This document shows positions 43,801 through 45,485 of a stretch of 64,000 bases of DNA, piece after piece. Source of the stretch: Malacoraja senta (Eukaryota). The notes under the pieces were generated by a model that was not told the DNA's origin, made no database searches, and worked only from the letters and a program-made list of their open reading frames with translations. The position numbers and the translations under genes are program-made. The DNA is taken from assembly GCA_038087875.1 (NCBI GenBank), contig CM075996.1:5086001-5150000 (forward strand), given 5' to 3'. Each line of letters begins with the position of its first letter. Within the stretch, counting starts at the first letter, position 1.

Positions 43801-45485
43801 GCACCTATTGTCTATCTATGTATCTGTCCAAGTGTCTTTAAATGCTGTAATTATATTCACCTCTACCCTTCCTAGTTATGTACACACGCGCACGCGCACA
43901 CACATGTGCTTGCACGCATACGGCTGCAACACACCTCCTGAAAAGATGCCTAGTCAATAGCAGCGGGGAAATCTGCAGGGCTACAGGACAAGAGCAGAGG
44001 GCTGTGACTTTTGCCGCTTGATGTATTATTGGCCAGGTTTGCCTTCTGACCATCCTTTTTTTTCCCCCCCCAAAAGAAATTTAAAAATTAATTCAGTTTT
44101 TGGACACAAAGTGTTGGAGTAACTTGGCAGGTCAGGCAGCAGACCTGGAGAACCTGGAATAGGTGACGTTTCAGGTCGAGACCCTTTTTCAGACTGAGAG
44201 CCATGGGGGAGGGAAACTAGAGATACGAAAAGGCACAAAGAACAAATGAATGAAGGGTTTACAAAAGAACAAATCAAAGCCACCAACGATGACCAAGGGT
44301 GGAGCCCACAATGGTCTGTTGTTGGTGATAACGAGTGGATACAAACAGTGGAAACTAAGCGGGACGATAATGCTGGGGCATGTAGTATGTGGACAGTGGG
44401 TAGGGAGGGGTGTTATGATAGGCAGCTGGTTGGAACAAAGGCCAAAGATAAGAAAGGAAGATAAGAAAGATAAGAAAGGAAGATAAGAAGGAAAATCAGC
44501 TCCAACATTCCAGCCACATTATAAACATATGGGTTTAGTGTAATTTATTATTGTCACGTGTACCGAGGTACAGTGAAACGCTTTTTGTTGCGTGCTATCC
44601 AGTCAGCAGAAAGACTATACATGGTTACAAGCCGTCCACAGTGTGGGGTGGGAGATTGCAACCTTCACGTGGTCCGCCCTGTTTCGACGAATGCAATCAA
44701 CCCGGTGTGCACAATCAAATAAGATCAAATAGAAAAAGTTGTCCTACAACTTTAGGCTGTGCACGCCATACGCAAGAAGAAGAAGTCCACAGTGTACACA
44801 CAGTATAATATTTAGTGCAAGATAAGGTCCATAAAAGATAGTTCAAACGTCTTAATGAGGTAGATGGGAGGTCAGGACCGCACTCTAGCTGGTAAGAGGA
44901 CCGTTCAGTTAGGAGATATATATATATATATATATACACACACACACACACACACACACAACCTAAATCTGCAAAACTACCTATTCCACATTTGCCCCTC
45001 AAAAATCAGCTCCCAACATTCAACTCACATCAGACATTCACAAGTATACAACGCCGTTAAACAATATGTGTAAGAAGGAACAGTAGATGCTGGATCAAAC
45101 CAAAGATAGACACAAAACGCTGGAGTAACTCAGCGGGACAGGCAGCATCCCTGGAGAGAAGGAATGGGTGACAGTTCGGGTCGAGACCCTTCTTCAGGTT
45201 GCCTGTCCCGCTGAGTTACTCCAGCTTTGTGTGTCTGTCTTCGCCATTAAACGATTTACCCAGTCCTGGTATGTCATTCATGGATGAATCCTCATCATTG
45301 TTTGTCATTCCCGATATCGATCCCGACTCCAAATCCTGCCGCTGGCCCCTCTCCTCCTCTTCCGAGGTGTCGTTACTCGATTCACCCGTGCTGAAGTTCC
45401 AATCACTGCAGCTCTCATGTCCCTCTGGACTATCGGAGCCATCGAATAGTCTGTAGTCTTCATCAGCGTCATCTGCAAAGGCCAT
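10788..45485 (-). CDS. L3MBTL2: Lethal(3)malignant brain tumor-like protein 2, whole spliced CDS span (16 coding exons, about 677 aa once two 1-nt homopolymer deletions are corrected)
   Basis: Exons 45485-45260, 43218-43086, 41277-41154, 38970-38891, 36991-36874, 33192-33059, 31079-30991, 29043-28812, 27939-27866, 26083-25979, 24614-24467, 23262-23183, 18720-18486, 17163-17110, 13597-13505, 10894-10788. All have AG/GT boundaries and compatible phases apart from the two 1-nt-short exons. Domain order is FCS finger then four MBT repeats. The peptides [36 protein letters not shown] and IIAVQVKEE, and the neighbouring CHADL, favour L3MBTL2 over MBTD1. Confidence 0.93.
12759..12949. mobile_element. 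hAT-type MITE
   Basis: TIR CAGTGGTTCTTAACCT / AGGTTAAGAACCACTG; 8-bp TSD GACTAGGT / GACTACGT. Confidence 0.85.
13505..13597 (-). CDS. L3MBTL2: L3MBTL2 penultimate coding exon (low conservation)
   Basis: [31 protein letters not shown]; strong polypyrimidine acceptor CTTTGCAG|, donor A|GTAAG; 93 nt, phase 1-1, open frame. Homology is weak, so the call rests on splice signals and phase. Confidence 0.7.
14537..15307 (-). mobile_element. Internally deleted hAT (Charlie-group) transposon retaining the transposase C-terminus
   Basis: TIR CAGGGGTGGGGAACCT at both ends; ORF 14746-15033 (W...YPRL...[19 protein letters not shown]...[11 protein letters not shown]) resembles the hAT C-terminal dimerisation domain. 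Confidence 0.88.
16306..16684 (+). mobile_element. 5'-truncated L1-clade LINE 3' end
   Basis: Homologous to about 21590-21965; T-rich 3' UTR and AATAAA-type tail; 14-bp TSD AAAATTAGAATAGA at 16292-16305 and 16685-16698. Confidence 0.75.
17110..17163 (-). CDS. L3MBTL2: L3MBTL2 exon (basic, NLS-like)
   Basis: [18 protein letters not shown]; 54 nt, phase 1-1; |GTAAGT; matches the lysine-rich segment expected after MBT4. Confidence 0.8.
17868..17985 (+). repeat. 18-bp minisatellite inside a SINE
   Basis: About 6 tandem units of GGGACAATTTACACACCG, expanded from the SINE body. Confidence 0.9.
18486..18720 (-). CDS. L3MBTL2: L3MBTL2 exon (MBT4)
   Basis: [78 protein letters not shown]; 235 nt; |GTAAG. 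Confidence 0.96.
20910..22024 (+). mobile_element. L1/Tx1-clade LINE 3' fragment nested in a CR1 fragment
   Basis: Frameshifted ORF with [10 protein letters not shown]...CDKC...H...C zinc-knuckle region, T-rich UTR and A-rich tail; CR1 sequence stops at about 20910 and resumes at about 22025. Confidence 0.8.
23183..23262 (-). CDS. L3MBTL2: L3MBTL2 exon (start of MBT4)
   Basis: [27 protein letters not shown]; 80 nt; TTCCAG| and |GTGAGT. Confidence 0.9.
24150..24286 (-). mobile_element. Short HDV-ribozyme-headed retroposon, internally deleted copy
   Basis: Homologous to 44645-44784; (GAA)n tail; duplicated flank CCACTGCCTTCT. Confidence 0.8.
24467..24614 (-). CDS. L3MBTL2: L3MBTL2 exon (MBT3)
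   Basis: [49 protein letters not shown]; 148 nt; |GTAAGT. Confidence 0.95.
25540..25957 (+). mobile_element. Two adjacent Helitron-like non-autonomous ends
   Basis: Hairpin GCAGACCC-AAC-GGGTCTGC followed 7 nt later by CTAG (25613-25616); a second, degenerate copy ends CGAG at 25957. Confidence 0.5.
25979..26083 (-). CDS. L3MBTL2: L3MBTL2 exon (MBT3)
   Basis: [35 protein letters not shown]; 105 nt; |GTAAG. Confidence 0.95.
27644..27774 (+). mobile_element. Short HDV-ribozyme-headed retroposon, internally deleted copy
   Basis: Homologous to 44645-44784; duplicated flank AACTGTCGACTTGA (27632-27645, 27773-27786). Confidence 0.8.
27866..27939 (-). CDS. L3MBTL2: L3MBTL2 exon
   Basis: [25 protein letters not shown]; 74 nt; TTTTGCAG| and |GTAAC. 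Confidence 0.92.
28812..29043 (-). CDS. L3MBTL2: L3MBTL2 exon (MBT2)
   Basis: [43 protein letters not shown]...[26 protein letters not shown]; 232 nt; |GTGAG. Confidence 0.95.
30078..30536 (+). mobile_element. Penelope-like retroelement 3' fragment: decayed GIY-YIG endonuclease end plus terminal repeat
   Basis: [39 protein letters not shown]...[25 protein letters not shown] resembles the YIGET..R..EH...HF...E...I..L...P.G.N pattern; it is followed by the CTGAAGAAGGGTCTCGACCC(G/A)AAACGTC repeat found throughout the window. Confidence 0.85.
30991..31079 (-). CDS. L3MBTL2: L3MBTL2 exon (start of MBT2)
   Basis: [30 protein letters not shown]; 89 nt; CCCTGCAG| and |GTATGG. Confidence 0.92.
31440..32305 (+). 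mobile_element. L2-clade LINE 3' fragment
   Basis: [34 protein letters not shown]...FKILL...[10 protein letters not shown]...[10 protein letters not shown]; tail AATAAA...(TTGAC)n. A second 3' piece lies at about 62683-63066. Confidence 0.88.
33059..33192 (-). CDS. L3MBTL2: L3MBTL2 exon (MBT1; contains an apparent -1 frameshift)
   Basis: [19 protein letters not shown], then [26 protein letters not shown] in a shifted frame; 134 nt where phases require 135. Confidence 0.92.
35375..36130 (+). repeat. Unclassified GC-rich interspersed repeat
   Basis: Shares T-rich and G-run 5' part and the GCCTTCCATCACAGTGAGG...TGAC(A)ATAA 3' part with 39335-40025; a similar layout occurs near 1510-1935. Confidence 0.55.
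36874..36991 (-). CDS. L3MBTL2: L3MBTL2 exon (MBT1)
   Basis: [39 protein letters not shown]; 118 nt; TTTAG| and |GTAGG. Confidence 0.93.
37483..38134. mobile_element. hAT-type MITE carrying a nested CR1 fragment
   Basis: TIR CA(A/G)GGGTTCCCAAC; imperfect 8-bp TSD CTCTAAGC / CTGTAAAC; CR1 3' end at about 37665-38035(-). Confidence 0.75.
38891..38970 (-). CDS. L3MBTL2: L3MBTL2 exon (start of MBT1)
   Basis: [27 protein letters not shown]; 80 nt; |GTGAGT donor. Confidence 0.92.
39335..40025 (+). repeat. Unclassified GC-rich interspersed repeat
   Basis: Same architecture as 35375-36130. Confidence 0.55.
40304..40865 (+). mobile_element. CR1-clade LINE 3' fragment
   Basis: [13 protein letters not shown]...[12 protein letters not shown]...YEERL...TRGHSLRI...[14 protein letters not shown]; conserved 3' UTR and (TTCTATGT)-type tail. 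Other fragments near 20125-20580, 22025-22410, 24695-25067, 36150-36570, 43407-43815, 48899-49410, 53785-54055, 61786-62075. Confidence 0.9.
41154..41277 (-). CDS. L3MBTL2: L3MBTL2 exon
   Basis: [41 protein letters not shown]; 124 nt; CAG| and |GTAAG. Confidence 0.92.
43086..43218 (-). CDS. L3MBTL2: L3MBTL2 FCS zinc-finger exon (contains an apparent -1 frameshift)
   Basis: [20 protein letters not shown], then [25 protein letters not shown] in a shifted frame; TTGAAG| acceptor, CAG|GTGGG donor; 133 nt where phases require 134. Confidence 0.92.
44645..44698 (+). ncRNA. Predicted minimal HDV-like self-cleaving ribozyme
   Basis: P1 GGGGTGG/CCGCCCT, P2 GATTGCA/TGCAATC, P3 ACC/GGT, L3 TTCACGT, single-pair P1.1, P4 reduced to T-[TTCG]-A, J4/2 CGAA. 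Confidence 0.75.
44645..44784 (+). mobile_element. 140-nt retroposon with predicted minimal HDV-like ribozyme head and (GAA)n tail, intact copy
   Basis: Perfect 11-bp TSD GTCCACAGTGT (44634-44644, 44785-44795); four homologous copies in the window. Confidence 0.85.
45260..45485 (-). CDS. L3MBTL2: L3MBTL2 first recognisable coding exon (acidic N-terminus)
   Basis: [19 protein letters not shown]...NDIPGL; acceptor AG at 45504-45505 (or 45498-45499); donor G|GTAAAT, phase 1. ATG 45485 is the assumed start, but the frame is open up to the acceptor. Confidence 0.8.

Follow-up and report, generated by a model that had tools for sequence, protein, structure and literature searches.

A non-autonomous retroposon of 140 nucleotides (nt), whose first 54 nt are predicted to fold like the ribozyme of hepatitis delta virus (HDV), was identified in a 64,000-nt stretch of Malacoraja senta DNA (GCA_038087875.1, contig CM075996.1, forward strand, positions 5,086,001 to 5,150,000; this whole stretch is referred to as the window and numbered from its first letter). 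The copy is nested in another repeat, and contigs from other runs carry this repeat uninterrupted, with the sequence of the target-site duplication (TSD) present once. It lies antisense within an intron of L3MBTL2, with exons at 45485-45258 and 43219-43160 on either side. The L3MBTL2 exons and a leucine-rich-repeat gene, which we take to be chondroadherin-like, are found at 10791-45485 and 59289-63386, both on the minus strand. The element, its perfect 11-bp TSD and the single helices of its head had been described in a first-pass annotation, and a re-check of the sequence confirmed all of them at the same positions (Table 1).

Table 1. Features of the element, and a second retroposon, in the window
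Feature	Position	Strand	Basis or remark
Left TSD, 11 bp, GTCCACAGTGT	44634..44644	+	identical to 44785-44795; single occurrence in other host-repeat copies
Whole 140-nt non-autonomous Vingi-derived retroposon	44645..44784	+	family in own genome; ends defined by the flanking sequence of 81 copies and by loose ends in three other runs
Predicted HDV-like ribozyme, 54 nt, P4 effectively absent, predicted cut 5' of G44645	44645..44698	+	descriptor match; other Vingi families with same fold and other helix sequences
P1	44645-51/44674-80	+	sequence check
P2, 7 Watson-Crick pairs	44654-60/44692-98	+	sequence check
P3	44661-63/44671-73	+	sequence check
L3	44664-70	+	sequence check
P1.1	C44666-G44681	+	sequence check
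J4/2 (CGAA), C44688 the predicted catalytic cytosine	44688..44691	+	role inferred from HDV
Part derived from the 5' end of a long interspersed nuclear element (LINE), about 80 nt	44645..44725	+	alignment to LINE copy L254
ATG in frame with the LINE open reading frame (ORF) in two LINE copies	44691-93	+	reading frames
Deletion-junction filler, apparent local duplication of the preceding A-rich stretch	44726..44737	+	aligns to neither LINE end; origin judged by eye
LINE 3'-end-derived part: last codons, stop TAG (44753-55), 3' untranslated region (UTR), (AAG)n tail (44774-84)	44738..44784	+	matches LINE copy L202 at 44 of 45 nt
Predicted long-range stem 44704-13 (LINE 5' part) / 44758-67 (3' UTR), around hairpin 44735-42/44746-53	44704..44767	+	inverted repeat
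Right TSD, 11 bp, GTCCACAGTGT	44785..44795	+	identical to left TSD
Second short retroposon (family B), about 315 nt, mostly (TAAG)n tail	63655-63971	-	

The head contains the nested double pseudoknot characteristic of HDV ribozymes, with P1, P2, P3 and P1.1 in the correct order and spacing. P1 lies where it had been placed, with a G.U as first pair, but a second G.U pair, U44649.G44676, has to be added to it, which is a U-A pair in the parent LINE described below. P4 was said to be shrunk to a UUCG loop; the loop is present, but it is closed by one U-A pair only, and for this reason P4 is regarded as effectively absent. A strict HDV descriptor matched the element, while the curated Rfam HDV model did not. 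The site at 44645 was the sole match of this descriptor in the window, and none was obtained in 20 dinucleotide shuffles searched on both strands. Over 800 kb of genomic strands taken without selection, a second fixed descriptor, which was composed after the heads had been inspected, gave two matches, each of them a copy of the element's family, compared to one match in 800 kb of shuffled sequence. From its fold, the head is likely to cleave itself 5' of G44645, the first nucleotide of the element (G1).

The element aligns to one LINE over its first 80 nt and its last 46 nt, with the sequence before the tail reading as the end of an ORF. The parent is a LINE of about 3 kb with a single ORF from the same genome. 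A pattern for an older tail variant was found at 58 places, and most of the 30 loci fetched were LINE copies truncated at the 5' end, with a CCHC-like knuckle and ...LDLQL* at their other end. Longer LINE copies start with the head of the element and end with its tail (L242/L254, 2.8 kb with the TSD at both ends; L251; and L245/L255, a 1.6-kb deletion form), and an alternative deletion junction is present in L171/L172. The P4-less head of 54 nt is already found in the long LINE copies. Similarity between the LINE copies is about 90%, and they are broken. Pfam searches of four LINE pieces identified an apurinic/apyrimidinic-type endonuclease (APE, PF14529), a reverse transcriptase (RT, PF00078) and a weak zf-RVT domain, while RNase H was absent from these four pieces; among 120 listed relatives none contained PF00075, and the relatives of whole length mostly have about 1,000 amino acids (aa). 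The element is an internal-deletion derivative of a Vingi-type LINE, with a two-part origin. As other partners, a LINE with an (AAG)n tail, presumably Nimb, and an RTE family found by PF20049, also with an (AAG)n tail, were rejected, the 3' end being different in both cases. A young LINE with two ORFs and an (AAG)n tail, presumably Nimb, is present in many copies with an intact ORF2 of 1,277 aa (L091-L093).

The element had been proposed to belong to a short interspersed nuclear element (SINE)-like family using the machinery of a LINE. The dependence on a LINE was borne out, but the element has no head of its own, since head and tail are both from one Vingi-type LINE. Classical SINEs have a head derived from tRNA, 5S or 7SL RNA with RNA polymerase III (Pol III) boxes; the head of the element is LINE-derived, contains no A or B box and has no match in Rfam. 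Instead, both ends come from the same LINE, an ORF is absent, and TSD and tail are present, as in bipartite non-autonomous LINEs, designated SIDEs (short internally deleted elements). The absence of A and B boxes had been noted before and was reproduced by a pattern search of the element. It rules out only an internal Pol III promoter, and the wider claim that the element is promoterless goes beyond it. That the element is an independent SINE, with only the tail from a LINE and a head from elsewhere, for example from the RTE-like family B, was suggested by a stretch of 21 nt over P2, P3 and L3 (44654-44674 in the element, 63941-63961 in family B), of which 19 nt are identical. However, the two have unrelated P1 helices and a P2 displaced by one base; P1, L3 and the register fit a metagenome Vingi-type family rather than family B. 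The parent LINE starts with the same head, by which this explanation is refuted for the origin of the element, and we give it next to no credence otherwise.

Exact words of the family were counted over the 1.94-Gb genome. A tail word of 25 nt occurs 2,837 times, a head word of 21 nt 5,225 times and the J4/2 region 6,465 times, while the reversed controls do not occur at all. Cross-recovery (10/30 and 21/30) gave 7,500-8,500 copies as a lower bound, and two copies in 260 kb of spread stretches correspond to about 15,000. Words of the family were found in 20 of the 23 listed runs, which carry six organism labels and one metagenome label. No relative was found in the viral contigs searched. The divergence of the short copies from their subfamily is 3.9% for a young subfamily (31 copies) and 5.0% for an old one (12 copies). 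Further copies are present in the window at 24159-24286, 27644-27774 and 47658-47795, two of which carry deletions inside the ribozyme; these four copies in 64 kb compare to about 0.3-0.5 expected from the genome-wide estimate. A strand bias in genes was considered, as three copies in the window are antisense or upstream and the ribozyme of the sense copy is partly lost, with an intact family-B copy being sense to a gene, and was set aside because the cases are too few.

The 5' ends of the copies were shown to pile up at G1, a point that had earlier been put forward as a test. When 30 loci, including one duplicate pair, were chosen by the tail only, 27 aligned from nt 1-3, one had kept the start together with an internal deletion, and two were headless. 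The flanks were analysed for 81 distinct full-length copies, among them the 30 closest matches. A TSD of at least 9 nt was identified in 66 of these, with a length of 11-12 nt in 42, compared to one false TSD in a shifted-flank control. The TSD adjoins G1 exactly in 45 of the 66 copies, and in the copy at 44645 the TSD boundary coincides with the predicted cleavage site, as had been claimed. The base preceding G1 is T in 33, A in 14, C in 10 and G in 9 of the 66 TSDs, the number for G being lowered by the stripping of terminal Gs shared with the element.

The assignment to a clade was based on the RT and on the heads. A protein search identified four further families, V2-V5, in the same genome; the Vingi-type copies L432, L434 and L437 contain open frames of 986-1,014 aa and are candidates for recently active families. 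In an RT tree of 30 rows with a midpoint root, from which 25 of the 30 RTE loci and all eight family-B loci were excluded for want of a long RT match, V1-V5 and the metagenome relatives group together with support of 100/99, and RTE, Nimb, CR1 and an L2-like row fall outside this clade. The ESM Atlas gave generic RT names only. The head of V4 matches by eye nt 2-74 of the Repbase entry Vingi-2_Gav, which is printed in the supplement of PMC5786205, and the HDV fold can be traced in the printed sequence too. On the basis of this match and of the RT clade, the clade is called Vingi. Vingi LINEs are defined by a compact single ORF with APE and RT and without RNase H (PMC13708176). The parent LINE fits this definition, its ORF having been read in pieces from broken copies.

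In each of the four families V2-V5, an HDV fold was identified immediately upstream of the ORF, and a metagenome Vingi-type family has one likewise at its 5' end. In a table of ten heads from seven families, six of the Vingi type and family B, 173 of the 179 pair cells are paired (163 Watson-Crick, 10 G.U, 6 mismatched). Two to five pair types occur at 16 of the 17 positions of P1-P3, and P1.1 is C-G, U-A or G-C. Between the heads the helix sequences diverge widely, while L3 and J4/2 remain alike; the first position of J4/2 is a C in all ten, which the descriptor itself demands, and the following base varies. The stems covary, which had also been put forward as a test, and the HDV fold is well supported because the cells pair across families with different helix sequences. 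The heads were collected with descriptors that require pairing, so the independent part of the evidence is the position upstream of the ORF. On 24 V2-V5 loci, the second descriptor gave seven matches, all in sense orientation and upstream of the ORF, and none antisense. In all five long copies with both ends, the TSD stands directly before the first base of P1, one of these TSDs being just 7 nt long. In L432 and L434, both of V4, a 26-nt piece of the ribozyme head is tandemly repeated four to seven times just upstream of the ORF, which suggests repeated template jumps at the 5' end. A head of the Vingi type was also recognised by eye in L266, at about 190-40 nt upstream of the ORF match; it has P1, P2, P3 and J4/2, but a long hairpin is inserted in its L3, and the descriptors miss it. 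The 5' UTR of Anolis Vingi-1 presumably resembles this head.

Alternatively, the first 80 nt might act mainly as an internal RNA polymerase II promoter starting at or near G1, with the ribozyme alongside or as a backup, as in L1Tc and NARTc of trypanosomatids, in which one stretch of 77 nt serves as internal promoter and as ribozyme (PMC3383444). About 25 nt are kept beyond the ribozyme, which brings the retained part close to these 77 nt, and thousands of dispersed copies are compatible with an element that promotes itself. A promoter, however, leaves unexplained both the compensatory changes in four helices over seven families and the start at the first base of P1 in each family, and we regard it as unlikely to be the main role.

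It also has to be weighed whether the P4-less head is a ribozyme of reduced or lost activity that persists as a folded cap or as a binding site for protein, the 5' ends being set by a stop of the RT at the stable P1 helix. In the other five tabulated Vingi-type families a P4 of 23-44 nt is kept, only the parent family being without it; a U-A pair in P1 is replaced by U.G in the young subfamily; in the fold of the whole element, a pairing of nt 2-5 with nt 56-59 competes with the ribozyme; and a specific selection signal on the catalytic cytosine, C44 of the element, was not obtained. The last point concerns a CpG asymmetry: in 46 copies, one C>T was found at the catalytic C compared to nine G>A, and genome-wide C44T was counted 212 times and G45A 412 times, but a control CpG was asymmetric too (C41T 181, G42A 664), so that the test is not specific and was set aside as evidence for selection on C44. 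G>A exceeds C>T two- to fourfold at both CpG sites counted genome-wide (element nt 41-45), which might reflect subfamily founders or an editing of the cDNA strand. Against a dead ribozyme, the parent LINE and both subfamilies have every core position intact, the copies contain all of P1 with no stop ahead of it, and minimal HDV-like ribozymes work in vitro (PMC10879173). We consider a loss of cleavage improbable, and less probable than the promoter.

The stretch following the ribozyme was found to pair with the 3' UTR. The 40 nt after the ribozyme were compared to the 40 nt before the tail in six families and 30 cross pairs. In V2, V3 and the metagenome family, one copy supplied the 5' end and another the 3' end, and the RT tree was used to check that such copies are related. 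The pairing has a z of -3.6 in the element and of -2.0 to -3.1 in V3, V4, V5 and the metagenome family, while none was seen for V2 (z -0.6). In five of the six families the own pairing is the best of its row, the cross pairs ranging from +1.3 to -1.9. The fold of the element body has a z of -4.0, and the young subfamily has gained one pair in the stem and built the inner hairpin. For L322, none of 500 shuffles paired as well; in decayed parent copies the pairing is weak, with 512 (L254), 70 (L252) and 18 (L255) of 1,000 shuffles as good. This pairing, present in five of six families, is a new feature, and the stem may present both RNA ends to the protein.

Taken together, it is probable that the element is an internally deleted Vingi LINE whose HDV-like head cuts before G1 and whose RNA is copied by the Vingi protein in trans. 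A source copy would be transcribed as part of a longer host transcript by read-through, and the ribozyme would cut just before G1, freeing a unit-length RNA with a 5'-OH. The Vingi protein of the parent family, or for the youngest copies perhaps of a sister family, supplied in trans, would bind the paired 5' and 3' ends, prime on the (AAG)n tail at the nick and copy through to G1, and the insertion would leave a TSD of 11-12 bp. Several results weigh against this reading. Among the 55 matches listed for the parent family, no copy has a whole open ORF. The positions of the TSD are off G1 in 21 of the 66 copies, 14 with 1-8 extra nt and seven shortened by 1-6 nt, and a TSD of at least 9 nt is lacking in 15 of the 81 copies. 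In Rfam, no HDV family was among the 20 matches at E<=10 in 43000-46500, and by ViennaRNA, which cannot model pseudoknots, the 54-nt head was no better folded than shuffles (z +0.92). The strict descriptor found no head in 80 metagenome loci and a relaxed one found heads in two of 17, the rows of the RT tree include no named Vingi or Ingi protein, and the CpG test on C44 was not specific, as described above.

Family B, presumably an RTE family, has 789 candidates in the genome. It starts at the first base of a 148-nt HDV fold with C-G as first pair, G-C as P1.1 and a long P4. Eight of its 30 loci continue differently after nt 249-263 and are likely the parent LINE of this family. Its likeness to the element over 21 nt may be due to exchange between families or to chance.

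The closest known systems are NARTc and RIME with their partners L1Tc and ingi in trypanosomatids, which are also short internal-deletion derivatives of Ingi-group LINEs; NARTc keeps about 77 nt of the 5' end with an HDV-like ribozyme cutting before +1, and a short 3' end (PMC4035085, PMC3383444). In contrast, the element is found in a vertebrate, has a Vingi parent without RNase H, lacks P4, ends in an (AAG)n tail and is present in thousands of copies; it is 140 nt long compared to 263 nt for NARTc, for which cleavage was shown in vitro, while that of the element is predicted from the sequence (PMC4035085, PMC3383444). Likewise, the R2 SIDEs and R2/R1 hybrid SIDEs of Drosophila combine a 5' ribozyme with a LINE's 3' end and are spread by target-primed reverse transcription; these are rare and site-specific in ribosomal DNA, whereas the element is dispersed and derived from an APE-type LINE (PMC3414825). 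Non-autonomous derivatives of hedgehog Vingi-1_EE are also internal deletions of a Vingi LINE (PMC5786205, PMC4494074). Minimal HDV-like and theta ribozymes share the compact HDV fold with the catalytic C first in J4/2, but were described from phages and metagenomes and are linked to tRNAs, while the element's ribozyme heads a vertebrate retroposon (PMC10879173).

No description of the family had been known to the first-pass annotation. In the literature within reach, which excludes subscription papers, patents, bioRxiv supplements, Dfam and Repbase, no paper describing it or a Vingi ribozyme was found, but the kind of element is already known from flies and trypanosomes. The surprise is limited because the mechanism is known from R2 and L1Tc. 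In early screens, HDV-like ribozymes from lancelet, lamprey and sea urchin were reportedly tested, one of which may lie in a Vingi element. A list of ribozyme-bearing clades from 2018 leaves out Vingi (PMC5786205). The same source asks whether LINE derivatives with two ends arise because the clades carry 5' ribozymes, and Vingi is the sole clade there which makes such derivatives yet is missing from the list. Anolis Vingi-1 is under development for gene writing with its native UTRs, and in the available text all six mentions of 'ribozyme' concern R2 or abbreviations (PMC13708176).

The gap in this list is now filled by a single genome with five families of the Vingi type, all of which begin with the first base of a predicted HDV fold, and the question can be tested by means of short RNAs. 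At 54 nt, the head of the parent family is the smallest, yet the derivative of this family has reached thousands of copies, of which many likely lie in introns, where sense copies would cut the pre-mRNA. The design of gene-writing templates would be affected if Vingi UTRs contain a ribozyme and a 5'-3' stem, and the clade-wide ribozyme and this stem merit further work. Whether the Vingi clade as a whole has an active HDV-like 5' ribozyme and a 5'-3' RNA stem, with the 140-nt element as a natural minimal template of ribozyme, stem and tail for the Vingi protein, is in our view evenly balanced. If true, this would account for the two-ended derivatives that Vingi produces, as RTE, Ingi and R2 do; it would place thousands of self-cleaving RNAs of 54 nt in a vertebrate genome, and would name two design elements for Vingi-based gene-writing RNAs.

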